A DNA stretch of 56,889 nucleotides from Oscillospiraceae bacterium (GTDB taxonomy: Bacteria > Bacillota > Clostridia > Oscillospirales > Oscillospiraceae), in NCBI GenBank assembly GCA_902803575.1, contig CADCQK010000259.1, positions 1-56,889 of the forward strand, written 5' to 3'. The notes beneath the pieces are model-generated. The model was not told where the DNA came from and ran no database searches. It saw nothing but the letters and a program-made list of their open reading frames with translations. Below are positions 6,632 through 49,635 of the stretch, in pieces (position 1 is the first letter of the stretch; each line of letters opens with the position of its first letter). Both the position numbers and the translations under genes were made by a program.

Positions 6632-6640
6632 GTCATGAAA

Positions 6641-6668
6641 ATCCCGGTATGCCTCGGCACACCGGGAT
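6641..6668. terminator. Bidirectional terminator hairpin
   Basis: ATCCCGGT-12 nt-ACCGGGAT, with T-runs on both strands, between convergent genes. Confidence 0.6.
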
Positions 6669-6672
6669 ACTT

Positions 6673-9043: not shown

Positions 9044-9075
9044 GATTCCATAAATATAATATTGAGGTGAAACCC

Positions 9076-10086: not shown

Positions 10087-10187
10087 GAATCACACAAACA
10101 TACGGATTCCCCGGTGTTCTGCACTGGGGAATTCTTAATTTTTGTTTATCATTTCTTCGGCGTTTTCACGATTTTATTTTTGCTTCA

Positions 10188-10216
10188 TTGACAGTCATAT
10201 TCTGTTCCGATATAAT
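10188..10216 (+). promoter_or_regulatory. Perfect-consensus sigma-A promoter (TTGACA-17-TATAAT)
   Basis: TTGACA at 10188-10193, a 17-nt spacer, TATAAT at 10211-10216. Confidence 0.7.
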
Positions 10217-10281
10217 TTATAATAGTGACAAATGTGTTGTTTTTGTAACTATTTGGAAAAAGATGCAAGGAGGAAATGCCA

Positions 10282-28019: not shown

Positions 28020-29000
28020 ATGATTCGAATTTACGGAACCCTTGGACCCGCCAGTGAGAGCAAGGAAATCCTGAAAGAAATGCTGCGCGCCGGTATGACC
28101 GGCATTCGGCTGAATCTCTCACACAGTATGCTCGCAGAGGCCGCCGCTGATCTGGATGCGCTGCGTGCGGCAGAAAAAGAGACCGGCATCCCTTCGGAGC
28201 TGCTCATCGATCTGCAGGGGCCGGAGGTGCGCATCGGAAAGCTTCCGAAACCGCTGGAGCTGGAAATAGGCAGCAGCGTCAAGTTCGGAGAAGAGATCCC
28301 GGTGCCGCTGGCGGTCCTTCAGGCGCTGCAGCCGGGACAGAAGCTGCTGCTGGATGATGGAAAGCTGCTGCTGGAGATGGTAACGGAAACCGAAGCGAAG
28401 GTGCTGCGCGGCGGAATGCTCGCCAGCCGGAAGAGCCTCGCCATCGAGGGCGTGGATCTGCACCTCCCTGCGCTGACCGACGAAGATCGCGTCAATCTGT
28501 CCCACGCAGCGGAATTTGGCGTGACCGCAGTCATGCAGCCCTTTGTGCGGGGTGCAGAGGATCTGGTAACGCTGAGAAAGGCACTGGACGACGCTGGCGG
28601 GTCCCACATCAAGATTTTTGCCAAGGTTGAGAATCAGTCCGGCGTACAGCATCTGCCGGAGCTGCTCCCTCATTGTGATGAGATCATCATTGCCCGGGGC
28701 GATCTCGGGAATGCCGTGACGCTGCTTCAGCTCCCGGCAGTGCAAAAAGAAATCGCTGCGATCTGCCGGAGGGCCGGGAAGCCGTTTCTGGTGGTGACCC
28801 AGCTACTGGCCAGCATGGAGCACGCGCCGATCCCCACCAGAGCGGAGGTCAGCGACATTTTCAACGCGGTTCAGGATGGCGCGGATTCCCTGATGCTCAC
28901 CGGGGAGACCGCCGTCGGAGCCTATCCCGTGGATTCGATTCGCTGGCTTCGGGATGCCGCAGATGCAGCTGAGGATTACAGAAATGAAAAAACGCGCTGA
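28020..29000 (+). CDS. Pyruvate kinase-like protein, barrel domains only (326 aa, no C-terminal regulatory domain)
   Basis: GTLGPAS, RLNLSHS, DLQGPEVR, KVENQSG, IIARGDLG, VTQLLASM and PTRAEVSDIFNAVQDGADSLMLTGETAVGAYP motifs. Confidence 0.8.
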   Translation: MIRIYGTLGPASESKEILKEMLRAGMTGIRLNLSHSMLAEAAADLDALRAAEKETGIPSELLIDLQGPEVRIGKLPKPLELEIGSSVKFGEEIPVPLAVLQALQPGQKLLLDDGKLLLEMVTETEAKVLRGGMLASRKSLAIEGVDLHLPALTDEDRVNLSHAAEFGVTAVMQPFVRGAEDLVTLRKALDDAGGSHIKIFAKVENQSGVQHLPELLPHCDEIIIARGDLGNAVTLLQLPAVQKEIAAICRRAGKPFLVVTQLLASMEHAPIPTRAEVSDIFNAVQDGADSLMLTGETAVGAYPVDSIRWLRDAADAAEDYRNEKTR

Positions 29001-29016
29001 AATCAGCGCGTTTTTC
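28986..29016. terminator. Bidirectional rho-independent terminator closing the minus-strand block
   Basis: AAAAA-ACGCGCTGA-AA-TCAGCGCGT-TTTT. It overlaps the stop codon at 28998-29000. Confidence 0.85.
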
Positions 29017-29022
29017 GTTTAA

Positions 29023-29874
29023 TCAGATAAGATCCACCGTGGCGATTCTCGGCTCGAAGCAACAGGTAGGACGGACGCAGACGATCCGGACACCGCTGGC
29101 TCTCTGGGGGCCGACCTTCATGAAGGTGGCGATCACGGAGGTGTTGCCGCCGAGACCCAGGGGTCCGATGTTGGCCTCATTCACTCTGCGGGTGATCTCC
29201 TGCTCCATGTCGCTCTGCACGTCGTAGCGGCCATCCACCTGCGCCTGGAGCATCATGGATGCAGCCTCGAAGTGGCTCCGCCCGACGCCCACCGCCAGCG
29301 TGCAGGGAGAGCAGCCCAACTGTGCTACGCCTTCCTTCGCCCAACTGACGATCTCGTCCAGCACCACCTGGGTGTTGTGCTTGTGGAACACCCGATAGGT
29401 CTTGGCACGGATGGCAGGGCCGCCGCCAAACATGAGGATGTGCAGCCGCAGCACGTTTTCCTCGCAGCGGCGCAGGAGGATCGGAGCAGGCTCCACGCCG
29501 GCGCTGTCAGGGTTCAGACCGCCGCTCTGGTCGATCCGGTGGCTGTCATCCCCCATGATCCCCATGGGGCGGCCAGGGAGCTTTCGGAGCCCCTGCCGGA
29601 CACCCTCGCGGATCTCATCCAGCATCCGACCGGTCACGGCGCAGTCCGGGCCAACCTCCAGCACCAGGTGCGGAATGCCGGAATCATCACAAAGAGGGCT
29701 GCGGTTCTGCTCCGCCGCCTCCGCATTGTCCAATACCGTCTGGAGCACCCATCTGGCCTGCTCGTTCTGCTCTTTTTCGATGGCAGCGCGGTAGGCCGCT
29801 TTTTTGTCCGCGCGGAAGGTGGAGCCGGCCTCCACCAGCGTGTCCCGCACGAGACTTACGATGTCATTTTTCAT
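29023..29874 (-). CDS. Fe-S type hydro-lyase, tartrate/fumarate subfamily, alpha subunit
   Basis: SD GGGAGGAG lies 5 nt before the ATG at 29874. The NRSPLCDDSGIPHL motif corresponds to the CQDTG motif of class I fumarases. Eleven-nt overlap with the beta gene. Confidence 0.8.
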   Translation of the reverse strand: MKNDIVSLVRDTLVEAGSTFRADKKAAYRAAIEKEQNEQARWVLQTVLDNAEAAEQNRSPLCDDSGIPHLVLEVGPDCAVTGRMLDEIREGVRQGLRKLPGRPMGIMGDDSHRIDQSGGLNPDSAGVEPAPILLRRCEENVLRLHILMFGGGPAIRAKTYRVFHKHNTQVVLDEIVSWAKEGVAQLGCSPCTLAVGVGRSHFEAASMMLQAQVDGRYDVQSDMEQEITRRVNEANIGPLGLGGNTSVIATFMKVGPQRASGVRIVCVRPTCCFEPRIATVDLI

Positions 29875-30373
29875 AAATGCTCCTCCCATGGGCTGCGCCG
29901 ATGATCGCAGGGTAGCGATCCACCTTGATCAGATGCAGCGCCTCCATGCCAAGCTCCGGGAAGGCCAGGACCTTCCGCTCGGAGGTCTTAGCCTCCAGCA
30001 GTGCCGTCACCGGCGGGATCACGGCATAGACCGCGTTATATTGATCCAGCGCTTGGATGGTCTCCTTGTGCAGCTCCCCTTTTCCCAGATGCAGCTTGAT
30101 GCCGGCTCTGGACAGCGGGGCGATGCTGCTTTCGATCTCCAGCTTGTTGGAGCTGGTGGGGCCGACGCCGGCCGGACTGACGGCGGTGTGGAAAATCACC
30201 TGACCTCTCAGATCCACGCCAAGCTCCCCCACGGTGCCGTCTTCGATCATTTTCAGCACCTTCGGAAGCACGGCGTCTCGTCCGCAGAGGATATAGCCGC
30301 TGATCTCAACGGTATCTCCCACCTGCAGGGCCGCTGCCGCTTCCTCTGAAATCGGTGTTTTCAATGCAATCAT
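29864..30373 (-). CDS. Fe-S type hydro-lyase, tartrate/fumarate subfamily, beta subunit
   Basis: GDTVEISGYILCGRDAVLPK and HLGKGE motifs, typical of the FumA C-terminal / TtdB domain. Confidence 0.8.
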   Translation of the reverse strand: MIALKTPISEEAAAALQVGDTVEISGYILCGRDAVLPKVLKMIEDGTVGELGVDLRGQVIFHTAVSPAGVGPTSSNKLEIESSIAPLSRAGIKLHLGKGELHKETIQALDQYNAVYAVIPPVTALLEAKTSERKVLAFPELGMEALHLIKVDRYPAIIGAAHGRSIYEK

Positions 30374-30435: not shown

Positions 30436-31581
30436 TTACTCATTCACGGCAAAGAGCTTTACATAGCCGCTTTCATTCTTGATCACGCCAAAGGCTCTCG
30501 CCCGGTTGTAGATCTTCTTCGCCCAGTTGGTATGGGGTCTGATCTCGTTCATTTTGTTTCCGCCGGAGCCCTTGACCACACCGCCGTTGGTGCCGAGGAT
30601 CTGACAGGCGTCGTCATATTCCTCCCTGGTCACCGCCATCAAAGCGTTGACGAACTTGACGTGGGTGGGATGGATGACCGTTCTGCCCACAAAGCCGTTG
30701 GCCTTGTCGAGGATCAGCTCCCTCAGCAGACCGTCGATCTCGTTGTTCACCAGCGGCTGACGGCGCATGAGGTAGTCCTCGATCCCGTGGTGGGGCAGCT
30801 CCTCAAACATCAGCTCCTTGGGCGCGCGGAAATACTCCCACACCGGCCCGGAGATCACATAGTCATTGTTGCGGCCGCAGATGTTGATGATGTCGCTGAG
30901 ACACTCACGGACGGTCATAATATCATAAAGACTGTAATCCACCCCGCGGCGCACACCGAACACAGAGCTGAAGTCCGTACCGCCCACGCGCACCTGCAGC
31001 ACCAGATCGTGATACTTGTCCAGGATCTTCTTGATGCCGATCAGCTGCTGCAGCCGGCTCTCCTTGTAGGCGACCTCCGGGTCCTCAATGATGGGCATGC
31101 CATAGAGGATCTCTCCGAAGCGATCGTTCAGATCCTGCAGGTAGGCATAGTACTCATAGCCGTTCTCCGCGTTGAATTTTGGAAAATTGACGCCGCAGAG
31201 AGAACGGACCTCCTGCTTGGTCAGCTTTTCCCCAAAGGCTTTGAACTGGGCCAGGTTCCGGATGCGGACGAAGATCAGCGGCACATAGTCCGGGTCCAGC
31301 GTGCCGTTGTCCACAGCCTCGGTGACCGTGGAAAGCAGATGGTGGACATTCTCCATGGCCTCCGGTACTCTCTCCTCCGGGCAGGCGTCCTCGAAGCAGA
31401 GGACCATGGTGGTCAGTCCGGGCATGGCGTGCTCCAGGATCTTCGGTGTAAAATCCTTGTACCCCGGCATATACATTGTGGCGCCCAGACAGTACTGGAG
31501 CAGCTCACGCTCCGTGTACTTGTTAAAATGCTCCGGCTCGACCACGAACTTGAAATCCGGGTTATACATGTGGTGTCTCAT
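30436..31581 (-). CDS. HpcH/HpaI aldolase / citrate lyase beta (CitE)-like TIM-barrel C-C lyase, long form (381 aa)
   Basis: The LCFEDACPEE motif corresponds to the CitE D/E-L-E-D-A metal motif. RVGGTDF and VIHPTHV motifs are also present. SD AAGGAAG lies 9 nt upstream. Confidence 0.65.
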   Translation of the reverse strand: MRHHMYNPDFKFVVEPEHFNKYTERELLQYCLGATMYMPGYKDFTPKILEHAMPGLTTMVLCFEDACPEERVPEAMENVHHLLSTVTEAVDNGTLDPDYVPLIFVRIRNLAQFKAFGEKLTKQEVRSLCGVNFPKFNAENGYEYYAYLQDLNDRFGEILYGMPIIEDPEVAYKESRLQQLIGIKKILDKYHDLVLQVRVGGTDFSSVFGVRRGVDYSLYDIMTVRECLSDIINICGRNNDYVISGPVWEYFRAPKELMFEELPHHGIEDYLMRRQPLVNNEIDGLLRELILDKANGFVGRTVIHPTHVKFVNALMAVTREEYDDACQILGTNGGVVKGSGGNKMNEIRPHTNWAKKIYNRARAFGVIKNESGYVKLFAVNE

Positions 31582-31650: not shown

Positions 31651-32553
31651 TCAGACCAGGCTGCCCTTGGGAGACCATACGGCCTCGGGGTAGTATTCGT
31701 CGATCATACGCTTGACCAGGCTGCACTGCTTGGCGCGCTTGCGGGCGTCGTCCTCGGTGCTGTCCCAGGAGTGGGTGGCAGCCACAGAGCCGCCGGTCTT
31801 CAGATAGATCGGAGCGGCAATGCGGATCATCTCCGGCACCTCGTAGTGGCGGATGAAGCCGCCGGTGGACTTGGGGTTTTCGGTGTGGATGTCGATGGGG
31901 CAGTCCACCGCCTGACGCATGGCGGCAAGCATCTGCAGCTGGATGTCACGCACCGGGTTGATGGAATCGGCGCCGATGGTCTCCAGCAGCTTGGCGGAGC
32001 AGGGGTTGCCGTGGCCCGCGTGAGCGGAAACCTTGAAGTGGCAGTCCTCGGGGATCTCGCCTGCCTTGCGCATCTCGTTTAAGATCCAGAGGCATCCCTC
32101 GTCATAGACCAGGAAGCCGCGGGCACCCAGACGGGCGGCGCGCTTCACATCCTCAATGGCGCGAATGATCTGCTCCTGACCGCGAAGACGGTAGCCCATG
32201 CGGACGCCCTCTTCGGTGTGGACGGAGGCGGAAGTGTCCGTGGTGGCGCGGGGACCGATGGCCAGAATCAGATCCGTCTGCCACTGGTGAGCAAGCTCCA
32301 CCATCTTGCCGATCTCCTGATCCGTCAGACGCATGATGCCCTGGGTCTGGGTCACACGGTGCAGATACAGGCCGTAGGAGTCCATGGCCTCCAGCAGCGC
32401 GCGCATGACCTTGGGCCCCTGAATGCCGGGGACCTCAAAGCGGAACTGGCCGCCGTCCTTGAAGCGCTTCTCAGAAGTGGGCAGATCATAAGCGTCCCCG
32501 CCGGGGAGGCCGACAGATTTCAGGAATTCTCTGGTTTGCTCCATGCTGTTCAT
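31651..32553 (-). CDS. Conserved hypothetical enzyme, probable alpha/beta barrel, family unassigned (300 aa)
   Basis: SD GGAGAAAGGA lies 7 nt before the ATG at 32553. The sequence is globular with alternating hydrophobic and charged segments, plus His-rich segments SAHAGHGNP and IDIHTEN. The opposite-strand ORF is low-complexity. Confidence 0.6.
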   Translation of the reverse strand: MNSMEQTREFLKSVGLPGGDAYDLPTSEKRFKDGGQFRFEVPGIQGPKVMRALLEAMDSYGLYLHRVTQTQGIMRLTDQEIGKMVELAHQWQTDLILAIGPRATTDTSASVHTEEGVRMGYRLRGQEQIIRAIEDVKRAARLGARGFLVYDEGCLWILNEMRKAGEIPEDCHFKVSAHAGHGNPCSAKLLETIGADSINPVRDIQLQMLAAMRQAVDCPIDIHTENPKSTGGFIRHYEVPEMIRIAAPIYLKTGGSVAATHSWDSTEDDARKRAKQCSLVKRMIDEYYPEAVWSPKGSLV

Positions 32554-32589
32554 GTTCAAATCCTTTCTCCGGCAGTGCCGGACGATGTA

Positions 32590-33720
32590 TTATCCGTTCA
32601 GATCGTCGATCAGTTCGTCGATGGCCGCCCGGTGATCGAAAATGATTGGCGGCAGCTTCCGGGTCAGTCCCTTGTGGATGCGGCAGTCGATGAAGGCTGC
32701 CTTGCCGCAGTCCTTCAACTGAGAAATGGCCTCAATCAGTTCTTCTTTCGTGGTGACCGCGTGGCCGACGGTCGCGTAGCCGCAGGCCTCCGCCGCTTTG
32801 GTAAAGTCCACAAGATGTCCCGCCGAGGGCTGACCGCCCACGGACTCATGGGCGCCGTTGTTCAGCACCACATGGAGGAAGTTTGGCGCCTGCACCTTGC
32901 TGACCATGGTCATGGCACCCATGTGCATCATGGCGGCGGAGTCGCCGTCCAGCGCCACGACGTGCCGTTCCGGTCTGGAAAGCGCGATCCCCAGGGCAAC
33001 CGAGGAGCAATGTCCCATGCTTCCCACATTCAGGAAATCCCGGGCTTTCGTCTCTCCCCGCTTCTCTCTGAGGAAAAACAGTTCTCTGGTGGCGCGTCCG
33101 GTGGTGGCACTGTAGACGGTAACCTCCGGCATGTGGTCGAGGATCACCTCAATGGCCTCTTCCCTGCTCATGGGATAGACATCATCCACATTGTTGGGCT
33201 TGTCGGGATCCGCCATGACGCCCTTGGGAGCAATGAGCGCGTAGATGCCGCGGGTCTCTTTGCAGTAGGTCACCGCTCGCTCCACGGTCTCGCTGAACTT
33301 CCGGTCGTCATCCTCCAGAATCGTATAAGGGATGTGCATCACATCCAGCAGACCCGGGGTGATCTCCCCCTGGAGCTTGTGCTGGGGGTGGTTTGGCTCT
33401 GTGTTTCCCTGGCCGCGCCAGCCGATCAGCAGCAGCATCGGAACAGCGTAAACGTCCCGGTCTGCCAGGCTGGCCAGGGGGTTAATGGTGTTGCCCATGC
33501 CGCTGTTCTGCATGTAGACCAGCGGGATCTCTTTGGTGGCGAAGTAATGCCCCGCCGCGATGCCCACGGCGTTGCCCTCATTGGCGGCGATCACGTTCCG
33601 ATCGCCGCAGTGGAGAAGCGCATAGTTGCAAAACCCGTTCAGATAGGAGTCCGGCACACCGGTGAAATAGGTCACGCCGTGATCCCGGAGGGTTTGAAAT
33701 ACGTTGTTCTGGTCCAGCAT
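32590..33720 (-). CDS. Single-chain ThDP-dependent decarboxylase of the phosphonopyruvate / sulfopyruvate decarboxylase family
   Basis: N-terminus YFTGVPDSYLNGF, then ANEGNAVGIAAGHY, LVYMQNSGMGNTINPL, LLLIGWRG, and a ThDP motif region ALDGDSAAMMHMGAM...NNGAHESVG. At 376 aa it is a fused alpha+beta form. Confidence 0.75.
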   Translation of the reverse strand: MLDQNNVFQTLRDHGVTYFTGVPDSYLNGFCNYALLHCGDRNVIAANEGNAVGIAAGHYFATKEIPLVYMQNSGMGNTINPLASLADRDVYAVPMLLLIGWRGQGNTEPNHPQHKLQGEITPGLLDVMHIPYTILEDDDRKFSETVERAVTYCKETRGIYALIAPKGVMADPDKPNNVDDVYPMSREEAIEVILDHMPEVTVYSATTGRATRELFFLREKRGETKARDFLNVGSMGHCSSVALGIALSRPERHVVALDGDSAAMMHMGAMTMVSKVQAPNFLHVVLNNGAHESVGGQPSAGHLVDFTKAAEACGYATVGHAVTTKEELIEAISQLKDCGKAAFIDCRIHKGLTRKLPPIIFDHRAAIDELIDDLNG

Positions 33721-34701
33721 TTACTTTTTCTCGCCCCCTACCGAGCCCTTGCCCTTGTAGAGCGTGAAATACTCCGGGCTGTCGCCCTTGGTGATGGCCC
33801 AGGCCTGCTCAAAGGCCTCCACCACGTCCTCCGGCAGCGGGCCGGCCTGGATGGTCTTCATGTTCTGCTGCAGATGGTTCAGCTTGGAGGCGCCGATGAG
33901 GATCGCGTCCCCCCGGTCGCCGTTCAGCATCGAATGATAGGCCAGCCAGCGGTAGGTGGCCTCGATGCTGGTAATGCCGTGCTTTGCCGCAGCGGCTTTG
34001 ATGAGATCCACCGCGTCAAAGAAGCTCTTCTTCCAGTAGCGTCCCTGATAGTTGGGCCGATGGGTGAACCGGCCGTCGGTGGGCGCGTCCGTATAGGAGC
34101 CGTACTTGCCTGTCAGCAGACCGCCGCACATGGGGTTATAGGCATAAAACCGCATGCCGAAATGGTTCAGACAGTCGTTGAGCTCCGCCTCGGCTCTGCG
34201 GGTCAGCGGATTGTAAACACCCTCGAAGACCGTGGGCTTCACCCAGCCGTGCCTGTCGCAGATGTGCCACACGTCGGTGACCATCCAGGCCGGGAAATTG
34301 GAAATGCCCAGTTCCTTGAATTTGCCCTGATCATGGAGATCCGCCATGGCCTCCAGAACGGAGATCACGGGCGTGGCGGGGTCCGGGAAATGCAGGAACA
34401 TGATGTCCGCGCAGTCCAGCTTCATCCGCTCCAGGCTCTCGTTGACCTGCATATAGGCCGCTTCCGCGTCCAGCTTGCCGGTGATGCGGGGATTCACCTT
34501 TCCCGCGATCTTGAAGGGCCGGTTCAGGTTCGGCAGCACCTCGCCCAGCAGCCGCTCGCAATTGCCCTCGTTATAAACATAGGCAGTGTCCAGCTCATCG
34601 TAACCCGCATCCAGAAATGCGTTGATAAAAGACTCCACATCCGGGGAAAACACGGATTCCCCGAAGGTCATGGTCCCAAGAATCAGTTTTACGTTGTTCA
34701 T
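33721..34701 (-). CDS. Aldo/keto reductase
   Basis: LGTMTFG, LDTAYVYNEG, HFPD and a LIGASKLNHLQQN-type C-terminus. The stop TAA abuts the next ATG. Confidence 0.85.
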   Translation of the reverse strand: MNNVKLILGTMTFGESVFSPDVESFINAFLDAGYDELDTAYVYNEGNCERLLGEVLPNLNRPFKIAGKVNPRITGKLDAEAAYMQVNESLERMKLDCADIMFLHFPDPATPVISVLEAMADLHDQGKFKELGISNFPAWMVTDVWHICDRHGWVKPTVFEGVYNPLTRRAEAELNDCLNHFGMRFYAYNPMCGGLLTGKYGSYTDAPTDGRFTHRPNYQGRYWKKSFFDAVDLIKAAAAKHGITSIEATYRWLAYHSMLNGDRGDAILIGASKLNHLQQNMKTIQAGPLPEDVVEAFEQAWAITKGDSPEYFTLYKGKGSVGGEKK

Positions 34702-34715
34702 GCCATCACTCCTCC

Positions 34716-36050
34716 TTATAGTTCCCTGATCAGGGCATCGACCGGGGCATCGGTCCGATATGCGGTTTGATAGACCGAATTGCTTGTGTCAGGCGAGATG
34801 CCGGCGTATTCCATCAGACCGTCGTAGCGCTCCCGGAATTCCCGGTCATCCAGCGGGTTTTCCGGCTCCCCTTTCGGGAAATCCACGCGGTCGGTGAAAG
34901 TGCCGTCCTTCGTGCGGATCGTGACCACCGCCGCCTGTACATCGGGGAACACGGCACTCAGCTCCGCATCCGCAGAAACCTTGACCTTTTGAGTCAGATC
35001 CAGGACCGCGGCGCCCTGCACAGCCTCCTCCGTGAACTCCTGCAAGCCCGCTTTCCCAAAGAGCAATCCCGCCGCCGTGGCGTAGGGGATGCTCATTTTG
35101 GCGCTGTAGCTGCCGGGGATCTCCGTATGGTCATGGCCGCTGACAGCGAGATCATAGGTCCGGATCGAAATCGATTCCACATCCTCCGGCTTCACCCTGC
35201 TGCGCAGATGGATCGCCGCCTCCACCGCAGGGTGGGTATAGCGGCAGGAGGCATAGGGCTTCGTATAAGACTTCATGATGGCATAGGTGCCATTCAAGAA
35301 CACCGGCTGCAATTCAACAGATTCCTTGCCGGTCATCATCTTCAGAAAGCCGCGGCCGCCCAGCGGGTCGCTGTGTCCTTTGAATCCGCTCCTGGCCAAT
35401 TGCAGCGCCGTGAGCGAAAGCAGCGCCGTCTTAGCCACATTATAGGGCTTCAGCTCACTGCCGTCATCCAGCACCTTCAACATGCCGCTGGCAGCCACAC
35501 AGGCACAGGCAAAGGCCTGAAACCGCTCCTCCTCCGAGAAGTCCAGCAGATAGGCTGCCGCCAGCGTTGCGCCCAGCGTGCCGCAGGTGCCGGTGGCGTG
35601 GTAGCCCATGGCCTTGTGCCCTGGCTGGATGGACACTGCCATGGTGTAGGACGCCTCATAGCCGGTTATCGCCGCCCGGAGCATCTCATCCACTGAAAAA
35701 CCATATCGCTGGCACAGCGGGATCAGCAAACTGAAGATCGGGCTTCCCAGATGGATGATGCCGGAGTTGGTGCCATCGTCAAAATCCAGCGCGTGCCCGT
35801 TCAGGCCGTTCAGAAAGACCGCTTCCTTCAGCACCAGATCCCTTCCGGTTCCGATGGCGCGGAAGGCGCCCTGCTCCGGCTCCGCGAAGGCGAAATAGCG
35901 ATCCAGCTTTTCTCTCTGGAATCTCGCCCCGGCGCAGGTCACAGCCAGATAATCCAGCAGGCTTCGACGCGCGCGGGCCATGACGGTCTCCGGAACCGGT
36001 TGATTCCACACGCCGTCAATGGCTTTCAAAAAATCGATCGATTGATTCAC
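34716..36050 (-). CDS. MmgE/PrpD family protein, paralog 1
   Basis: GTG start 7 nt after GGAGG. ARRSLLDYLAVTCAGA, ALDFDD and HLGSPIFSLL motifs, with the two-domain PrpD layout. Confidence 0.8.
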   Translation of the reverse strand: MNQSIDFLKAIDGVWNQPVPETVMARARRSLLDYLAVTCAGARFQREKLDRYFAFAEPEQGAFRAIGTGRDLVLKEAVFLNGLNGHALDFDDGTNSGIIHLGSPIFSLLIPLCQRYGFSVDEMLRAAITGYEASYTMAVSIQPGHKAMGYHATGTCGTLGATLAAAYLLDFSEEERFQAFACACVAASGMLKVLDDGSELKPYNVAKTALLSLTALQLARSGFKGHSDPLGGRGFLKMMTGKESVELQPVFLNGTYAIMKSYTKPYASCRYTHPAVEAAIHLRSRVKPEDVESISIRTYDLAVSGHDHTEIPGSYSAKMSIPYATAAGLLFGKAGLQEFTEEAVQGAAVLDLTQKVKVSADAELSAVFPDVQAAVVTIRTKDGTFTDRVDFPKGEPENPLDDREFRERYDGLMEYAGISPDTSNSVYQTAYRTDAPVDALIREL

Positions 36051-37893: not shown

Positions 37894-37981
37894 CCGGCAT
37901 TCTCCCGCGGTGTATTCGAAAAAGCGGATCATCCGCATCTGATTTGTTTTTTCCGGAAACGCCGGAACCGGCAGCCTGAAA

Positions 37982-38728: not shown

Positions 38729-38735
38729 GGTTATC

Positions 38736-40079
38736 TCACCCCCGGAGCCATTCCATCGGGTTGCAGAACGGTCGATCCGACGAAATCTCTCCGATTGCCC
38801 TCTGCAGTCCCGCAAGCTGAACCTCATCTGCGAGACCCTGGGCACATACCCGCAGCTTGGCAACGATGTCCTCTGCCGAAAGCGGATTCTCCGGGTCTCC
38901 CTTCGGCACCAGAACCGTCTGCTTCAAACGCCGGCCGCCGCTGGTCAGAATCTCGATCCTGGCGCCGCGGATGCCTCTGCTGCGATCCTCCATGGTTTCA
39001 TCCGGAATCAGCTGGATCCGGTCAATCATGGATCTGATCGAATCGGTCAGACGACCCGGCTGCATATCCTCAACACCGTAGCTGCCGTTCAGCAGGGCGC
39101 AGGCCAGCGTGTACGGGATGGAAAACTTGGTTTCATCCGGATCCCTGGGATACGGGATTCCGGCAAGCTTGATGGCATTGGGATAAATGAAGACGTTGAC
39201 CGTCCGAATCTCCTCCGCCTGCACCTGATCGTGCAGCAGGATCCCCGCGTCAATGCCGCAGTGGGTATGACGGCAGGAGGGATAGAGCTTAAAATAGCAG
39301 TCGTGCAGCAGCAGATGATCCGAGCCGCGCAGACAGCTTTCATCCACATGATCCGTCACGGCATGGAACCAGCCGTTTGGCCCCTCAAGAGACTCCGTGG
39401 GGCCAAGCATGCCTTCCCTGGCGAGCATCGCAGCGAAGATGCCGTTCTCTGCCGCCTTGCCTGGATTGAGCGGCTTGATCGCCGGTCTGGAATCTCCATA
39501 GGACAACAGGCCGCCGGACATGGTGGTGGCAAGAGCAATGGCGTTTTCAAGCCCATTCGCATCCAGGTGATACAGCCGCGCACAGGCAGCTGCACAGGCC
39601 AGAGTGCCTGCCATGCCGGTGGAGTGAAATCCGTGCTGCACCAGCCCGGGCTGCGCCGCCGAGGAGATGCGGATATACGCCTCATAACCCGCAGCGAGGG
39701 CCAGCAGCACGTCATTTCCGGTGCTGCCCAGCTTTTCTCCCAGGGCAAACACAGCGGGAATCAAATGCACGCCCGCGTGTCCGGCTGCCTTCTTGTTTCC
39801 GTCATCCAGCTCGGCGCCGTGACCATAGACAGCGTTCATAAAGGCCGCCAGTCGGGCGGGATATTTTGTTTTCTGAAAGAGCACCGTGCTCTCTGCAGCG
39901 CCGCCCTGCGCATACACCACCGTCTCCACCGCGTCGTTGAAGACCCGGTTCTGTCGATAGCCGGCGCAGGCAGCCGCGAAAAAGTCGGTGATCAGGATCT
40001 GCAGCTGCGATACATCCCGCTCTGAAAGGTTACAGATCGAAACAAGATCGCGCGCCAGTTCCGTTGTCATACCGCCCAT
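38736..40079 (-). CDS. MmgE/PrpD family protein, paralog 2
   Basis: ITDFFAAACAGY, ELDDGN, HAGVHLIPAVFAL, PSCRHTH and a PKGDPENPL motif near the C-terminus. Confidence 0.8.
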   Translation of the reverse strand: MGGMTTELARDLVSICNLSERDVSQLQILITDFFAAACAGYRQNRVFNDAVETVVYAQGGAAESTVLFQKTKYPARLAAFMNAVYGHGAELDDGNKKAAGHAGVHLIPAVFALGEKLGSTGNDVLLALAAGYEAYIRISSAAQPGLVQHGFHSTGMAGTLACAAACARLYHLDANGLENAIALATTMSGGLLSYGDSRPAIKPLNPGKAAENGIFAAMLAREGMLGPTESLEGPNGWFHAVTDHVDESCLRGSDHLLLHDCYFKLYPSCRHTHCGIDAGILLHDQVQAEEIRTVNVFIYPNAIKLAGIPYPRDPDETKFSIPYTLACALLNGSYGVEDMQPGRLTDSIRSMIDRIQLIPDETMEDRSRGIRGARIEILTSGGRRLKQTVLVPKGDPENPLSAEDIVAKLRVCAQGLADEVQLAGLQRAIGEISSDRPFCNPMEWLRG

Positions 40080-40108: not shown

Positions 40109-41380
40109 TTATGCCTTAGATTTTTTCGAAAGCTTCTTTCTCAGCTTCCGGTAATCTGCCTTATCGATGAACAGCATGGTTCGAAACGGGATCCCGGTGG
40201 TGCGGCAGAAATACACGATAAACAGGACAGAGCAGACCGCATAGGAGATGACGCTGGCGAGACCGGCGCCGTAGATTCCGGAGATTGGGATCAGGATCAG
40301 GTTTGCAACCACGTTGCTCAATACGCCGATCCCCAGCAGGACAAAGCTCACAACCTGCTTGCCCATGGCAATGTTGTAAGAGGCGATGAGCTTATAATAG
40401 ATCATCGAAAACACACCGGCGAGCAGGATCAATGTGACCTGATACGCGCCGCTGAACTCGCTGCCAAAGGCAAAATCAATGAAGGGCTTGCCCAGCGCGA
40501 TAATGCCCAGCACAATCACCAGACAAACCGTGTTGCTGATACGGATGACATACGCCGTCTCCCGGGCATCCTTGCCCTTGGCGATGTTGGAAACCATGAC
40601 GCCCTTCATGGCGTCGGGGATCATCCAGATCCGCTCCGCCAGAAGCACGCCGACGGAATACACACCGATGGCTGCATCCGCCACACGGCCGTTGAGCATC
40701 AGGACGTCTACCCGATAATTCAGGGTGGTCATCAGCAGAGAGAGCATCGGGAAAAAGCCGAATTTCACCAGCTTCGGGATCCAGATCTTCAAAGACTCCG
40801 AGGGGACAAAAAACCGCTTTCTCCACCAGCCGGTATAGATGAGTGCCTTGGCGACGTCCTTGATGGTGATGACAAACACACCGATGACGAAGGTGGGCTT
40901 CGCTGTGATCCAGAGGATGACCAGGATCACCAGCTCTGCGAACACCACGGCCATGTCTGAGACGCTTCGCTTGTTCGGCACCTCAATCAGCGTGATGTAA
41001 GAGACGATCTTATCGTAGGTCAGCAGCGGCGTGAGAATCAATACGGCGATGTATTTCGCAGGCAGGTCCATCACGGCGATCGCCGCCGCCGAAATTGCCC
41101 CGTAGAAGAGCAGCAGCAGCAGCGAGAGCTTCATGAAGATGGGCATGATATCCACATCGCTGTTGCGCTTGAAGTAGGGATAGGCGTGATAGATGCCCAG
41201 ACCGAACACGATGGAGGTGATGCTGACGATGCTGTTGACCGTCGCCACCTGCCCCTTAATCTCCGCGCCGAGGTATCGGGACTGGAAGATGGTGAAAACC
41301 AGGCCCACCACAACGCCGAACACTTTCGATATGACGGATAAGGAATATGCGTTTGTGAAGAACTTTTTAATTCCGCTCAT
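40109..41380 (-). CDS. Polysaccharide flippase (Wzx, MOP superfamily)
   Basis: About 12 predicted TM segments. N-terminus SVISKVFGVVVGLVFTIFQSRYLG is typical of the Polysacc_synt family. Confidence 0.8.
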   Translation of the reverse strand: MSGIKKFFTNAYSLSVISKVFGVVVGLVFTIFQSRYLGAEIKGQVATVNSIVSITSIVFGLGIYHAYPYFKRNSDVDIMPIFMKLSLLLLLFYGAISAAAIAVMDLPAKYIAVLILTPLLTYDKIVSYITLIEVPNKRSVSDMAVVFAELVILVILWITAKPTFVIGVFVITIKDVAKALIYTGWWRKRFFVPSESLKIWIPKLVKFGFFPMLSLLMTTLNYRVDVLMLNGRVADAAIGVYSVGVLLAERIWMIPDAMKGVMVSNIAKGKDARETAYVIRISNTVCLVIVLGIIALGKPFIDFAFGSEFSGAYQVTLILLAGVFSMIYYKLIASYNIAMGKQVVSFVLLGIGVLSNVVANLILIPISGIYGAGLASVISYAVCSVLFIVYFCRTTGIPFRTMLFIDKADYRKLRKKLSKKSKA

Positions 41381-41415
41381 GAACTGCTCCTTGCTGTCGC
41401 TCCGGCGATGAATGC

Positions 41416-42885
41416 TCAGGCAAGGGCGATCAGCTGCTTTCTGTCGACCTTACCGTTGTAGGTTCTGGGGATCTCCGTAAGCGGCTCGATGAACTTCGGC
41501 ACCTTATAGGCCTCCAGCTTGGCCGCCAGGAACTCCGCGATCTCTACAGCGTCGAAGCTGCAGCCGTCCTTCATGACGACGAACATCTTCAGGCTTTTCC
41601 CGAACATATTGTCATCAAAGGGGATGCAGGCGCAGTCGGCCACCTTCTCAAACCGAAGGAGCATATCCTCCACCTCGGTGGGCGCCACCTTGAATCCGCG
41701 GATGTTGACAACATCATCCCCTCTGCCGGCAAAGTGCAGACAGTGTCTGTCATCAAAGAACATCAGATCTTTGCCGTAGATGTATCCATCCTTCAGCACC
41801 GAGGCAGTCAGCTCCGGCTCATGATAGTAGCCGAGCATGTTCATATCGCTCTTAGAGCAGATCAGGCCTTCTTTGAAGGGCTCGGTGATCTCATTTCCGT
41901 TCTCGTCCAGGAGCTTCACTTCCACCGACGGATACGGCACGCCCAGGCTGTTGATGGTCTCCCCCGGCGCGTTGTACTGGCAGTTGCAGATGCTGCCGGT
42001 CTCACTGCTGCCGTAGCCCTGGTGAAGCCTGGTGTCCGGCAGAAGCTCCATGAGCGTCTCAATGTCCTTCGTGGGGAAGGGCGCGGAGGCAGTGTAAACA
42101 AACTCCAGCTTGCCGTTGAGTGCGGCCAGCTGCTTTTTAGCAAGGGTGATCAGCATCTTCACAGAGGCCGGCGGCAGATAGGTGTGGGTTACCCCATACT
42201 GATTGGCCAGCTGGAAAAACGCGCGCAGATTCTGCACCCCGTCCAGCAAGATCACGGTGCAGCCAACCGCCATGCACTGGTGTACCCGGTGCAGACCGCC
42301 CACATGGTTCAGCGGCGTGGTCACCAGGAACACAGAGTCCTCTTTGAGGCCGAAGGAAGGGTTGATCGCCGCCATATAGGCCTCAAGGCATTTGGAGGAG
42401 AGCATGACGCCTTTGGATTTTCCGGTGGTGCCGGTGGTAAAGATAATCTCCGAGCAATCCGGAGAGACCCCTGCCGGCGTCCAGTCGAAATCCGTCTCAC
42501 GGTCCATATCCACATCAGCAGCGGAGATCCAGTGAAACTCTCCTGCAGGCTGCTCGGGTGAGATCACAAACGCCGCATCCACAAAACCCGCGATATCGGA
42601 AAGACGGTCCACCGGGGCGCGGTTCTCCGCCGGGATATGCACAGCGCCGATGCCCAGCAGCGCATACTCGCAGACGATGTATTCCGCGCTGGGCGTGGCC
42701 ATGGACAGCACATGGCTGCCGGGTTTTACGCCTTTGGAAAGGAACCAGGCCGCTGCGGAACTGATTTTTTGATACAGCTCCTGATAGGTAAGGCACGCGT
42801 CGCCGACGACGAGCGCAAGCTTCTCCGGGGTCTCAATGGCATGCTGCCGGATCAGCCCGGTAACTGACAAGTGTTCCGCGTTCAT
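41416..42885 (-). CDS. ANL-superfamily adenylating enzyme (acyl/aminoacyl--carrier-protein or CoA ligase)
   Basis: SD GAGGTGA lies 8 nt before the ATG at 42885. AMP-binding motifs IIFTTGTTGKSKGV, YGSSETG and GKVDRKQL. Confidence 0.85.
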   Translation of the reverse strand: MNAEHLSVTGLIRQHAIETPEKLALVVGDACLTYQELYQKISSAAAWFLSKGVKPGSHVLSMATPSAEYIVCEYALLGIGAVHIPAENRAPVDRLSDIAGFVDAAFVISPEQPAGEFHWISAADVDMDRETDFDWTPAGVSPDCSEIIFTTGTTGKSKGVMLSSKCLEAYMAAINPSFGLKEDSVFLVTTPLNHVGGLHRVHQCMAVGCTVILLDGVQNLRAFFQLANQYGVTHTYLPPASVKMLITLAKKQLAALNGKLEFVYTASAPFPTKDIETLMELLPDTRLHQGYGSSETGSICNCQYNAPGETINSLGVPYPSVEVKLLDENGNEITEPFKEGLICSKSDMNMLGYYHEPELTASVLKDGYIYGKDLMFFDDRHCLHFAGRGDDVVNIRGFKVAPTEVEDMLLRFEKVADCACIPFDDNMFGKSLKMFVVMKDGCSFDAVEIAEFLAAKLEAYKVPKFIEPLTEIPRTYNGKVDRKQLIALA

Positions 42886-42917
42886 GTTTCCGATCACCTC
42901 TCCAAAACCAACTGGAA

Positions 42918-43154
42918 TTATTTTGCCTGCAGGGTCTCGATCATGCGGGCCATCGCGTCCACAGAATTGAAGTTCTCAGGCACGATCTCATCGATAGAGA
43001 TCTCAACGCCGAATTTTTCGCTCAGCGTCGTGATTAGGAGCATCAGCTCAAAGGAGTCGATGTAACCGCCCTCGATGATGTTGGTGATACCATCCAGGTT
43101 CTTGGTGGGTTTTACGTCATGCAGGATCTGCAAAACCTGTTCACGAGTCGTCAT
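42918..43154 (-). CDS. Standalone acyl/peptidyl carrier protein, DltC-like
   Basis: 78 aa. Phosphopantetheine site GGYIDSFELMLLI (Ser34). The overall pattern resembles D-alanyl carrier proteins. Confidence 0.8.
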   Translation of the reverse strand: MTTREQVLQILHDVKPTKNLDGITNIIEGGYIDSFELMLLITTLSEKFGVEISIDEIVPENFNSVDAMARMIETLQAK

Positions 43155-43170
43155 GGGAATTACCTCCGAT

Positions 43171-44457
43171 TCAAATTGTATTTCTTAAACGATTGGTGGG
43201 ATAAGCCATCTCACTGGCAGCGACACGACGCCGCTCGCCTTTTTCATGATACCCCTCGGTCAGGAACACGATGAAAAACAGCATATAGAAGGTTCCGTGG
43301 GTATGAGGCGTGAAGAACGACAGACCAATCAGGAAGGCCGCCAGCCAGAAGGACCAGCCGCGCAGATCGATCAGGCACTTCAGATAGAACAAATAGGACA
43401 GCAGCGTGCCGACAATGCCGAATTTGTACATGGTCGCGTTGAAGCCGGTCATGTGGAAATCCAGACCGGAGTAGTGGTCGGAAATGCCGAACACAAGCTC
43501 CCATCCGTGCATCTGGCGGATAAACTCATAGCCGCCCTCAACGCGTCCCGAGACGGCGTTCTTGTAGTCAGAGCCGCTGGAGAAGATGCGGATGACGCTC
43601 CGGTGGAAGAAATCGACCTTGAAAAACATAAAGACCAGCACGGCAGTGATCAGAAGCAGAATCGAAAGATTGCGAGGCTGCAGCAGCTTCGGCAGCAGCA
43701 GCTTGCCGTATCTCCGCTTCTCGCTGTTTCTGGACAGATACACCAGCCAGAGCAGCACCGTCGCGATGATGGCCATGCCAGAGGTGGAGAGGATCATGCC
43801 AGCGGACAGGAAAATTGCCTTCCGTTTTGCCCGGAACCCCGCTCCGGAATGGTAGATTTCATACACCAGCGGCGCGAACAGATAGATGAACATGTGAGAC
43901 GGCTCCAGGAAGAAAGCCGAAGGCCGGTAGAAGGAGATCGGTCGGCCGGTGATGCTGTATCGTCCGGTATTGGCAAGCTTGACCCACTGGTTGGCACTTT
44001 TCAGCAGCAGCGAGGTCGGCACCATCTTCAGATGGAAATGCAGCAGATAGTAGCAGAAATACTGCAAAATGATGCCCACACAGGCTGCCATTGAAATGAC
44101 CGTAGCGACTTTGATCACCTTTTTTGCCTCCAGACAACCGGACAAAAACGCCATCGTGAACACGAAATAAACCAGCACGAGGCCCATTTCGCTTGCGCTG
44201 GTGCCGTGGTCAATGATTTTATAAACTTGAAACAAATACAGTCCGCCGAACACATTCAGGCATCTGGACGACAAAACAGGACGGCCCGCAAATAAAGCCA
44301 AAACCAGAACCATGGCAAGTATGATAACGGTAACGCCGCCGTTGATCACACCCTTATAGTTCTGGAGGATCGGCGCGATCGCCACAGCGATCACAGCCAG
44401 TGTGGCTAAATTCAATACACGGGCCTGACTTCTGCCCCGCGTGATGCTTATCTTCAT
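43171..44457 (-). CDS. Wzy-type oligosaccharide repeat-unit polymerase / O-antigen ligase-like membrane protein
   Basis: About 10-12 TM segments, with a periplasmic loop RPSAFFLEPSH typical of polymerases. Confidence 0.65.
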   Translation of the reverse strand: MKISITRGRSQARVLNLATLAVIAVAIAPILQNYKGVINGGVTVIILAMVLVLALFAGRPVLSSRCLNVFGGLYLFQVYKIIDHGTSASEMGLVLVYFVFTMAFLSGCLEAKKVIKVATVISMAACVGIILQYFCYYLLHFHLKMVPTSLLLKSANQWVKLANTGRYSITGRPISFYRPSAFFLEPSHMFIYLFAPLVYEIYHSGAGFRAKRKAIFLSAGMILSTSGMAIIATVLLWLVYLSRNSEKRRYGKLLLPKLLQPRNLSILLLITAVLVFMFFKVDFFHRSVIRIFSSGSDYKNAVSGRVEGGYEFIRQMHGWELVFGISDHYSGLDFHMTGFNATMYKFGIVGTLLSYLFYLKCLIDLRGWSFWLAAFLIGLSFFTPHTHGTFYMLFFIVFLTEGYHEKGERRRVAASEMAYPTNRLRNTI

Positions 44458-44541
44458 TCTTTCGGTTTCCCTCCATCATTTCTCAGACTGACCGACCGGC
44501 GCGCCAGCCAGCGCTCCCCATCCGGTAAACGCATGGCGGCG

Positions 44542-45105
44542 TCAGGATCCGTGCCGTTGATCGAACCGTTCCCATTCCGCAGCAGCCACCTCCGGGGGCA
44601 TCTGCTGTTTTTTGAACGCGACCGTCTGGTTCTTGCTCATTTTCCGAAGCGCCATGAACATATCAAAGCGCCCGGTGGGCTTGGCGGGAATGCCGGAGGC
44701 AATGGAGTTTTCGGGGATATCCGACGCCACGACGCTTCCGGCGGAGATGATGCAGTTGCGGTTGATTCTCACATTCGGCATGATGATGACGTTCATGGAG
44801 ATATAGACGTTGTCCATCAGCTCGATGCACCCGAGCTTTTCCCGATAACCGAAGTCCGCGTCGGGATCGCAGCCCTTCAGGAAGTTGTTGATCATGTCGT
44901 GGGGAGACAGGTGGGCGCTTTTGTGCACGACCACGTTGTCATGGACCCGGATCAGCTTCGCGTGCAGCGGCAGCAGCCAGGGACCCCACTTGACATTCTC
45001 GCCCATGTGGTCGAAGAGATTGTGCTTGCGAATATAGTCCGCACGCTTGCGGGCGGAACGGCACAGCAGCAGACGGATGCTGTGATAGAGTCTTGCAGCT
45101 CTCAC
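44542..45105 (-). CDS. Hexapeptide-repeat (LbH) acetyl/acyltransferase
   Basis: GTG start 7 nt after GGAGG. Hexapeptide run IELMDNVYISMNVIIMPNVRINRNCIISAGSVVASDIPENSIASGIPAK. Confidence 0.8.
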   Translation of the reverse strand: MRAARLYHSIRLLLCRSARKRADYIRKHNLFDHMGENVKWGPWLLPLHAKLIRVHDNVVVHKSAHLSPHDMINNFLKGCDPDADFGYREKLGCIELMDNVYISMNVIIMPNVRINRNCIISAGSVVASDIPENSIASGIPAKPTGRFDMFMALRKMSKNQTVAFKKQQMPPEVAAAEWERFDQRHGS

Positions 45106-45148
45106 GTAGATTCCTCCATTTTCAGATGCGCATCATGCGCTGCGGGTC

Positions 45149-45172
45149 GATGCTTCTCAACGTCGAAGCATC
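45149..45172 (-). other. Perfect 8-bp inverted repeat (intercistronic stem-loop)
   Basis: GATGCTTC-8 nt-GAAGCATC, overlapping the stop codon of the sugar transferase gene. Confidence 0.4.
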
Positions 45173-45875
45173 AGGAATGGGGCTCCGGCATTTCCTCCGG
45201 TCTCGGCACGGTGCCGGCTTCCCACTGGGCCTTTCGGTAATCCCAGAAAAGCTCCTGCTTGCCGGCCTCGATGATGTCCGCGTGCTTGAACACCTTGGCC
45301 ACCGTCTGAAACAGGATCTTCACATCCAGCCAGAAGGAGACATTCTCAACATAGTAGAGATCGTATTCAAATCGCTTGTCCCAGCTGGCGGCGTTTCTGC
45401 CGTTGACCTGGGCGAGTCCCGTCAATCCCGGCCGGACCGCATGGCGGCGGTGCTCCGCAGGGGTGTAATACGCCAGAGCCTTTTTGTTCCAGGGTCTGGG
45501 GCCCACAAAGCTCATGTCCCCTTTCAGGATGTTCCAGAGCTCCGGAATCTCGTCCAGGCTGGTGGCGCGCAGCATCCGTCCGAACTTGGTCATGCGCTGG
45601 GCGCTGGGCAGCAAGACACCGTTCTCGTCCACATCGTTGGTCATGGAGCGGAACTTGCAGAGGCCGAACAGCTTTTCCTTGCCGGTCTTGGGGTCGATTT
45701 TGCCGGGACGCTGGTGAACAAAAATGACCGGTGAACCGAGATTCACCTTCACCAGGATCGCCACGATGGCGTACAGCCAGCAGAACAGGATCATTGCAAC
45801 AACAGACAGGACAATGTCGAATAACCGCTTAACGACATTGTTATAAAACTTATGCCTGGGTTCGAGTGTTTCCAT
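45171..45875 (-). CDS. Small monotopic phosphoglycosyl transferase (bacterial sugar transferase, PglC/EpsL/WbaP C-terminal type)
   Basis: KRLFDIVLS, SPVIFVHQRPG, KFRSM, DEIPELWNILKGDMSFVGPRP and GLTGLAQVNGR motifs. ATG at 45875 preferred, with TTG at 45902 possible. Confidence 0.85.
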   Translation of the reverse strand: METLEPRHKFYNNVVKRLFDIVLSVVAMILFCWLYAIVAILVKVNLGSPVIFVHQRPGKIDPKTGKEKLFGLCKFRSMTNDVDENGVLLPSAQRMTKFGRMLRATSLDEIPELWNILKGDMSFVGPRPWNKKALAYYTPAEHRRHAVRPGLTGLAQVNGRNAASWDKRFEYDLYYVENVSFWLDVKILFQTVAKVFKHADIIEAGKQELFWDYRKAQWEAGTVPRPEEMPEPHS

Positions 45876-45898
45876 CACTGATTGACTCCCTTTTATAC

Positions 45899-48177: not shown

Positions 48178-48189
48178 TTATCTGTTTCC

Positions 48190-49500: not shown

Positions 49501-49635
49501 GTTACATACATCCCAACGATCGTAGTTTTTGTGTGAAATCTGCGTCTGCGGATCGAGCCGCATGCCGCGAAAGAGAAGTCTATTCCGGCCGCACGGTGAT
49601 TCCGCGCAGGCACTAACAAATCATCCGCTCCATCC

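Follow-up and report, generated by a model that had tools for sequence, protein, structure and literature searches.

A gene at positions 32590..33720 on the minus strand of contig CADCQK010000259.1 (Oscillospiraceae bacterium, assembly GCA_902803575.1) encodes a fused thiamine diphosphate (ThDP) decarboxylase that resembles phosphonopyruvate decarboxylase (Ppd). The whole stretch of 56,889 nucleotides that was analysed is referred to here as the window. On balance, the observations speak for a Ppd-derived 2-oxoacid decarboxylase that would act with an aldo-keto reductase (AKR) on a keto-acid supplied by co-inherited neighbouring genes, independently of phosphoenolpyruvate (PEP) mutase (PepM), with the product decorating a surface glycan. 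We infer that the substrate is something other than phosphonopyruvate, and likewise infer the order of the steps and the glycan destination.

The Ppd-like open reading frame (ORF) begins with ATG and spans 376 codons, and its translation contains the segments YFTGVPDSYLNGF and LVYMQNSGMGNTINPL...LLLIGWRG, from which a first reading of the sequence alone (the sequence-only reading) had recognised a fused alpha+beta ThDP enzyme; the ORF and its architecture are real. Pfam places TPP_enzyme_N at residues 7-119 and TPP_enzyme_C at residues 229-346, and finds no other domain. The NCBIfam equivalog model for phosphonopyruvate decarboxylase, TIGR03297, scored the protein at 397.6 bits against a cut-off of 312.5, with an alignment that spans model positions 1-343 of 360 and leaves the C-terminal tail unmatched. 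Both sulfopyruvate decarboxylase models remained below their cut-offs (TIGR03845, 83.9 vs 147.95 bits; TIGR03846, 102.1 vs 221.5 bits). The nearest solved structure is 9iz3, the split Ppd RhiEF (PMC12141560), and tblastn gave 44-46% identity to the AepY proteins encoded next to aepX in Fulvitalea and Segatella copri. The NCBI-sourced name of these proteins is ‘phosphonopyruvate decarboxylase’, as is that of NCBI's curated model. The sequence-only reading had assigned the protein to the Ppd family, and had named an HMM placement outside the Ppd/ComDE family as the result that would overturn it; the score against TIGR03297 lies above the cut-off, and the tree described below places the protein inside the PepM-linked Ppds, so that the assignment holds.

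The Ppd-like gene sits in a long co-directional array on the minus strand, in which the gaps between genes are short or zero. Read 5' to 3', the block to which it belongs starts with a PrpD/MmgE-family protein, here called type 1 (34716..36050; MmgE_PrpD_N and _C domains), and continues with the 326-aa AKR (33721..34701; PF00248, E 2.7e-56), the stop codon of which abuts the start codon of the Ppd-like gene. Downstream of the Ppd-like gene comes U302 (31651..32559), a 302-aa protein from a TIM-barrel family that matches nothing in Pfam or NCBIfam, and the best conserved gene of the block. It is followed by a 381-aa CitE/HpcH-like C-C bond lyase (30436..31581; PF15617, E 3.6e-112), and by the beta and then the alpha subunit of an Fe-S hydro-lyase of the class I fumarase/tartrate dehydratase family (29864..30373; PF05683, E 3.1e-21, and 29023..29889; PF05681, E 3.4e-48). 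All are encoded on the minus strand. A strong hairpin of the intrinsic-terminator type on the same strand (28987..29016), composed of a 13-pair stem and then a T run and located 7 nt past the stop codon of the alpha subunit, would close the transcription unit.

The distribution of this block was followed through U302, of which 5,328 relatives are found in a 90%-clustered protein collection. A search of a one-genome-per-species collection returned 392 matches, of which the best 80 were kept (L007-L086); the window proteins were mapped onto 86 fetched loci and all ORFs were clustered. In these best 80 of the 392 matches U302 is 89-98% identical, the nearest genome among the matches being the rumen Clostridiales metagenome-assembled genome (MAG) RUG342 (98%). 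The carriers that were kept comprise MAGs of Oscillospiraceae, Lachnospiraceae, Erysipelotrichaceae, Spirochaetales and Victivallales, and isolates with U302 include Butyricimonas muris GBG-M4 (Bacteroidota), Sarcina sp. DSM 11001, Hungatella effluvii DSM 24995, Acetatifactor muris DSM 23669 and Lachnospiraceae bacterium NE2001. Between Bacillota, Bacteroidota, Spirochaetales and Victivallales, identity of this order goes far beyond what taxonomic distance would permit, and implies that the block has recently spread by horizontal transfer within the communities of gut and rumen.

Of the 68 distinct loci that extend at least 2.6 kb upstream of U302, 59 contain Ppd, and AKR accompanies it in 59/59. 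The order PrpD-AKR-Ppd-U302-lyase-FumB-FumA (the last two being the beta and alpha subunits of the hydro-lyase) is nearly fixed (59/68 related loci), and all complete loci carry U302 and both hydro-lyase subunits, the beta subunit having been counted in 76 loci. About half of the 80 kept loci are recognisable polysaccharide loci. Directly upstream of the block, 33 loci have an ATP-grasp ligase, 20 have a DctM-like anion permease and 13 have a LysR regulator, and flippases, sugar transferases and DegT genes are common. The PrpD-like gene adjoins AKR in most related loci. In eight of them (L012, L013, L016, L020, L026, L047, L052 and L058) the type 1 slot beside AKR is taken by a type 2 PrpD, of which the window holds a copy as a second PrpD/MmgE paralog (38736..40079, minus strand; 28% identity to type 1). 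The slot is therefore open to either PrpD type, and a third PrpD type goes with a version of the block that lacks Ppd. Natural minimal blocks occur in L048, L054 and L063, where U302 at 10001-10900 is followed by FumB from about 10920, with no lyase, and in L070 a polysaccharide pyruvyl transferase (6626-7789) lies where PrpD would be.

PEP mutase was sought in the window and in the related loci, and the absences reported here refer to these sequences as distinct from whole genomes. Pfam scans of 43 predicted window genes (including all selected ORFs of at least about 230 aa) found no PEP_mutase/ICL domain. A tblastn search with the Mytilus PEP mutase, a query checked to be identical to PDB 1M1B, gave zero window matches even at E<=10, and an eight-sequence PepM HMM, run with filters off over all six-frame window segments of at least 40 aa, reached a best E of 3, which is noise. 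The string EDK-x5-NS was likewise missing from the six-frame segments of the window. The claim of the sequence-only reading that the window lacks both a PEP mutase and its EDK-x5-NS loop was thus confirmed by all of these searches. Both PepM queries did recover PepM in two related loci, L032 and L070; these two proteins were part of the eight-sequence HMM, yet they were found independently by tblastn with the Mytilus query.

PepM is present in only two of the 86 loci (1.5 Mb, window included). Where the block contains Ppd, PepM is adjacent to it in 0/59 loci and within 10 kb in 2/59, whereas it is immediately adjacent in 7/7 canonical Ppds, six of which come from plasmids (Fulvitalea, Segatella copri, Mycetohabitans, Azospirillum, Streptomyces and Rhizobium etli) and one from L032. 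The PepM of L032 carries two fused nucleotidyltransferase domains (TIGR02320, 400 bits; cut-off 319.55) and is followed by an iron-containing alcohol dehydrogenase (Fe-ADH) and then by a separate canonical Ppd (TIGR03297, 449 bits), which shares only 43% identity with the Ppd of the block (cassette Ppd) 9 kb away. A PepM-linked Ppd and a cassette copy thus coexist in one genome. The PepM genes of L032 (16049-18094) and L070 (16001-18010) both encode PEP mutase + NTP_transf_3 + CTP_transf_like fusions in glycan loci, and the L070 locus also carries LicD and Wzy.

The relationship between the two groups of Ppd was examined in a neighbour-joining tree rooted on one ComDE-like split enzyme. The cassette Ppds are monophyletic in this tree (100/100 bootstraps), with the PepM-linked AepY proteins of Bacteroidota and Firmicutes as their sister group and the proteobacterial and actinobacterial Ppds branching outside. 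By this phylogeny the cassette clade is a derived offshoot of true Ppds. Pairwise identity among the canonical Ppds (n=7) ranges from 32% to 56% in the alignment, and a motif comparison of these seven PepM-linked enzymes with 65 cassette Ppds found 47 positions that are invariant across both groups. Among them are the catalytic E48, D258-G259-D260 of the GDG...N Mg/diphosphate motif and N288, and the ThDP machinery of the Ppd-like enzyme is, as judged from these residues, intact.

Two motifs do separate the groups. The C-terminal L-G-R-P-x-x-x-P of the canonical enzymes (7/7) has become K-L-P-P-(L/I)-x-F-x-H in 65/65 cassette Ppds, so that the Arg is replaced by Pro, and the Glu of the canonical D-E-P-Q-H has become His or Trp (NH-PQH or DW-PQH). 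The window protein has LPP instead of LGRP, and NHPQH instead of DEPQH. The Arg of LGRP is retained in the one ComDE-like split enzyme examined. In other ThDP decarboxylases of the pyruvate decarboxylase and benzoylformate decarboxylase (PDC/BFDC) type, the C-terminal segment closes over the active site. The lost Arg is therefore a candidate contact for the anionic 3-substituent of the substrate.

A sister version of the block does without Ppd. Nine loci lack both Ppd and AKR, and in eight of these nine, as well as in the more truncated L083, a D-isomer 2-hydroxyacid dehydrogenase (2-Hacid_dh) is encoded just upstream of PrpD. The lyase and PrpD of the Ppd-less loci are divergent (56-59% and 36-43% identity, respectively). 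The gene content of the two block versions is most simply explained if the shared enzymes yield a 2-oxoacid, the fate of which would be either decarboxylation and reduction to an alcohol, or reduction to a 2-hydroxyacid.

The enzymes that would supply this 2-oxoacid belong, with one exception, to known families. That exception, U302, is predicted by AlphaFold2 (AF2) to form a (beta/alpha)8 barrel (pLDDT 93.5). Foldseek found no close solved structure for it: the top TM-scores were 0.42-0.50 (U32 ‘peptidase’, class II aldolases and pyruvate kinase), and those to members of the isocitrate lyase/PEP mutase (ICL/PEPM) family, about 0.44-0.45, were no better than those to other TIM barrels. The sole match in a profile search of the PDB covered 57 residues of 3rj2 (E 0.003), and profile-profile comparison with PepM (hhalign) gave a probability of 1.8%, similar comparison of the CitE-like lyase with PepM giving 1.9%. 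Given the lack of a Pfam or NCBIfam match, TM-scores of at most 0.50 and the hhalign result, the possibility that U302 is a hidden PepM, a ComA or a known aldolase was rejected. Across 31 diverse members, S29, F33, E42, G145, D153, S178, R215, R237 and P250 of U302 are invariant, and D35, R147, K176, N185, D223 and K254 are nearly so, a pattern compatible with metal-dependent chemistry on a polyanionic acid.

The gene contexts of U302 relatives were also considered. The nearest distinct relative (54% identity) has as neighbours a GntR regulator, a TctABC tricarboxylate transporter, a PrpD-family gene and a gene of the dihydrodipicolinate synthase (DHDPS) family, and this context, by analogy, points to organic-acid chemistry. 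The contexts of distant relatives are heterogeneous, comprising sugar-acid dehydratases with DHDPS, Amidohydro_2 with a short-chain dehydrogenase/reductase (SDR) and AKR, TctABC with PrpD and DHDPS, and hydantoinase A/B; they are too heterogeneous to fix the reaction of U302. In L102 (3214-7894) and L104 (2315-7927), U302-family members of 42-45% identity are directly downstream of hydantoinase A/B pairs of the oxoprolinase/acetone-carboxylase type.

The nearest solved structures to the type 1 PrpD-like protein are B. subtilis IRG1, IDS epimerase and cis-aconitate decarboxylase (CAD), PrpD itself being further off. The CitE-like lyase matches PF15617 at 375 bits (gathering threshold 28.4), and its top Foldseek matches are acyl-CoA lyase beta, malyl-CoA lyase, CLYBL and citramalyl-CoA lyase; these were obtained with a poor AF2 model (pLDDT 62.6), as only near-identical homologues were available from which to build it. 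The alpha subunit of the hydro-lyase scores 97.5 bits on TIGR00722, just below the cut-off of 100.65, and only 51 bits on the TtdA model (cut-off 365), and its nearest PDB entry is the fumarate hydratase 7xky. From its sequence, the hydro-lyase is assigned as a divergent member of the fumarase/tartrate dehydratase family.

Taken together, these enzymes could form the following pathway. The Fe-S hydro-lyase and U302, usually with the CitE-like lyase and the PrpD-like protein, would convert an organic acid to a 2-oxoacid; the starting acid would be endogenous, or imported by the DctM-like permease found with the block in 20 genomes. The Ppd-like enzyme would then release C1 of the 2-oxoacid as CO2 and the adjacent AKR would reduce the resulting aldehyde to an alcohol, while in the sister block the same 2-oxoacid would be reduced to a D-2-hydroxyacid. 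The product would most likely be attached to a cell-surface glycan, because polysaccharide loci have the block at their 3' end, just behind the ATP-grasp ligases.

Of the explanations left open by the sequence-only reading, another 3-substituted pyruvate, supplied by enzymes of the operon, is best supported, by the fixed block and by its sister version; sulfopyruvate found no support, and a mutase encoded elsewhere is disfavoured. A tentative and rather doubtful elaboration is a scheme like the methylcitrate cycle, in which the CitE-like lyase would condense or cleave, the PrpD-like protein would dehydrate, the Fe-S enzyme would rehydrate and U302 would cleave, releasing an anionic 3-substituted pyruvate such as oxaloacetate or an analogue. 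This scheme is the most coherent one found, and gives every family a role that is known for it. Oxaloacetate, 2-oxoglutarate, 4-hydroxy-2-oxoglutarate, pyruvate from itaconate or citramalate, and glyoxylate were weighed as the substrate, and none was established.

Several observations weigh against a PepM-independent decarboxylase of another keto-acid. The enzyme passes the Ppd equivalog model and nests among true Ppds, and phosphonopyruvate may for this reason be its substrate. In L070, the block is followed 2.5 kb downstream by a PepM fusion and LicD, and a second Ppd is not in the 2.9 kb visible beyond, which is the one observation that favours the use of phosphonopyruvate by the cassette enzyme. 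The role of the two lost motif residues in substrate binding is a guess. Other U302 relatives are found in unrelated contexts, for example beside hydantoinase pairs. The CitE-like lyase is absent from L048, L054 and L063, and PrpD from L070; the proposed order of the enzymes is uncertain because of these losses, and the methylcitrate-like scheme is weakened by them.

The decarboxylation of another keto-acid was weighed against three rival explanations. If the block were one half of a split phosphonate pathway, PepM would be encoded elsewhere in the genome, the AKR would make 2-hydroxyethylphosphonate from phosphonoacetaldehyde for the decoration of the glycan, and the other neighbours would serve another purpose. 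The TIGR03297 score above the cut-off, the position of the protein among PepM-linked Ppds with its 44-46% identity to AepY of Fulvitalea and Segatella copri, and the PepM and LicD near the block of L070, with no other Ppd in view, are all consistent with such a pathway, and canonical AepY clusters likewise decorate glycans, with a phosphonoacetaldehyde reductase and LicD. It is nevertheless unlikely. PepM is adjacent in 0/59 block loci vs 7/7 canonical loci, and the gene content of the block remains constant across distant taxa without PepM, which would be unexpected if the block depended on an unlinked gene; Ppm is present in 4.2% of complete bacterial genomes in a published survey (PMC8942020). 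L032 has a canonical Ppd beside its PepM, separate from the cassette copy; two family-invariant residues have been lost; and Ppd and AKR can be swapped for a 2-hydroxyacid dehydrogenase while U302 and the hydro-lyase remain.

The two other explanations that were considered are less probable still. A sulfopyruvate decarboxylase, in a block that makes sulfopyruvate and converts it by way of sulfoacetaldehyde to isethionate (or to sulfolactate in the sister version), is very improbable, even though Ppd and ComDE form one family, the protein has weak matches to both ComDE models, and a decarboxylase followed by an aldehyde reductase is the logic of isethionate formation. The scores are far under the cut-offs of these models (102 vs 221.5 and 84 vs 148), the clade branches within Ppd and apart from the ComDE-like outgroup, and the Arg kept by the one ComDE-like enzyme examined is lost in the cassette Ppds. 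No ComA, ComB or ComC domain and no sulfonate-related gene was found among the window genes scanned with Pfam, nor any sulfonate-related cluster among the annotated neighbour clusters of the related loci. The least expected explanation, and hardly a credible one, is a carbon-phosphorus (C-P) bond formed without PepM, with U302 or the PF15617 lyase making phosphonopyruvate or an analogue and Ppd or the 2-hydroxyacid dehydrogenase pulling the reaction. To our knowledge, a PepM-independent C-P route of this kind is without precedent. Neither barrel protein shows profile similarity to PepM, the Fe-S hydro-lyase and the PrpD-like protein would have no obvious role, the family-invariant Arg and Glu are lost, and the relatives of U302 are found in non-phosphonate contexts. 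In its favour, the decarboxylase descends from a true Ppd, and E42, D153, K176, D223, R147, R215 and R237 of U302 were judged to be consistent with metal-dependent enolate chemistry on a polyanion. The enzymes that alternate downstream, of Ppd type and 2-Hacid_dh type, also parallel Ppd and VlpB (2-Hacid_dh_C family), both of which act directly on phosphonopyruvate in published pathways (PMC8942020). The probability not taken up by the decarboxylation of another keto-acid or by these rivals is left to ‘something else’.

Comparison with known systems places the block near several of them. AepY/Ppd clusters for glycan decoration (aepX-aepY-phosphonoacetaldehyde reductase-LicD, as in Segatella copri DSM 18205 and Fulvitalea axinellae) share the fused alpha+beta ThDP architecture, an aldehyde-reducing enzyme that follows, the polysaccharide-locus setting and a score above the cut-off of the same curated HMM. 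The block differs from them in having no adjacent PEP mutase, an AKR instead of Fe-ADH, the fixed partners U302, Fe-S hydro-lyase, CitE-like lyase and PrpD-like protein, and replacements of LGRP and of the Glu of DEPQH. ComDE, from coenzyme M biosynthesis, belongs to the same ThDP subfamily and shows that the scaffold accepts a 3-substituted pyruvate besides phosphonopyruvate; it is, however, split into two subunits, whereas the window enzyme is fused and has no ComA, ComB or ComC partners, and the ComDE-like sequence is outside the cassette clade. The 2-Hacid_dh of the sister block mirrors the choice between decarboxylation and reduction of phosphonopyruvate that is known from the Valinophos-type branch, in which PepM is followed by VlpB (PMC8942020), but the block has no PepM and the likeness is one of pathway logic only.

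The 2-methylcitrate cycle (PrpC, PrpD, aconitase and PrpB) likewise brings together a PrpD-family protein, an Fe-S hydratase and C-C lyases of barrel fold, and release of a 2-oxoacid would in principle be possible. The PrpD-like protein of the block is, however, closer to IRG1, CAD and IDS epimerase, its hydratase is of the fumarase/tartrate dehydratase family and not an aconitase, and its lyases are CitE-like and U302, whereas PrpB of the methylcitrate cycle belongs to the ICL/PEPM family. The TtdAB/TtdR system for L-tartrate comprises a two-subunit Fe-S hydro-lyase, a LysR regulator and a transporter, which compares with the LysR regulator in 13 and the permease in 20 of the related loci, and TtdAB makes oxaloacetate, the carboxy analogue of phosphonopyruvate. 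The window block differs in that the regulator and permease are absent from the window and the score on the TtdA model is low.

A full-text search of the accessible literature found no description of the block. The published inventory of phosphonate branch points was built from PepM neighbourhoods (PMC8942020) and for this reason would miss it. The parts are known enzyme families and one family without a model; their combination, like a Ppd clade that has parted from PepM, has apparently not been described before. If the substrate is another keto-acid and PepM is not involved, the phosphonate annotation of hundreds of genomes from gut and rumen is misleading, and surveys that count Ppd overcount phosphonate producers. 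The cassette clade would then be a natural case of a Ppd scaffold re-specified by few changes. The block most likely adds a non-sugar substituent to surface glycans, molecules that shape interactions with the host and with phages. If, instead, a PepM-independent route to the C-P bond exists, the gut and rumen would harbour phosphonate-decorated glycans that are invisible to pepM-based genome mining, and use of phosphonopyruvate by the enzyme without PepM would break the rule by which nearly every biological C-P bond begins with PEP mutase.

The surroundings of the Ppd-like gene in the window are a cell-surface glycan locus, a point that the sequence-only reading had missed. Co-directional glycan-assembly genes upstream (40109..49563, minus strand), assigned by Pfam, NCBIfam and transmembrane-helix (TM-helix) count, encode, 5' to 3', a DegT aminotransferase, two ATP-grasp ligases, an initiating sugar transferase, a hexapeptide acyltransferase, a 6-TM protein, an AMP-binding enzyme and a Wzx-like flippase. 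Between the flippase and the block follow the type 2 PrpD paralog, an acyl-ACP thioesterase and a lipoprotein. The longest ORF of the thioesterase (37982-38863, minus strand) runs 128 nt into the 3' end of the PrpD paralog upstream, and for this reason its true start is probably an internal codon. The 611-aa predicted lipoprotein (36103-37938, minus strand), with a signal peptide that ends in LVTGC, belongs to no Pfam or NCBIfam family; it lies between the block and the thioesterase and is common only to L007. Genes for SLH-domain proteins, a spore-coat protein and an LCP ligase are also present in the window, and the host is, on the strength of these predicted genes, a Gram-positive spore-former.

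On the other side of the block, a 326-aa protein encoded on the plus strand (28020-29000) consists of the pyruvate-kinase barrel domain alone (PF00224, E 8e-77), without the C-terminal domain. Its gene converges on the block, and the terminator region is common to both. It was considered as a PEP-handling partner and dropped, as L007, the nearest relative, is the only one in which it is conserved (80% identity). About 20 kb from the block, the window encodes an aconitase-family protein (6673-8943, minus strand) and an FMN-dependent 2-hydroxyacid dehydrogenase (9067-10086, plus strand).

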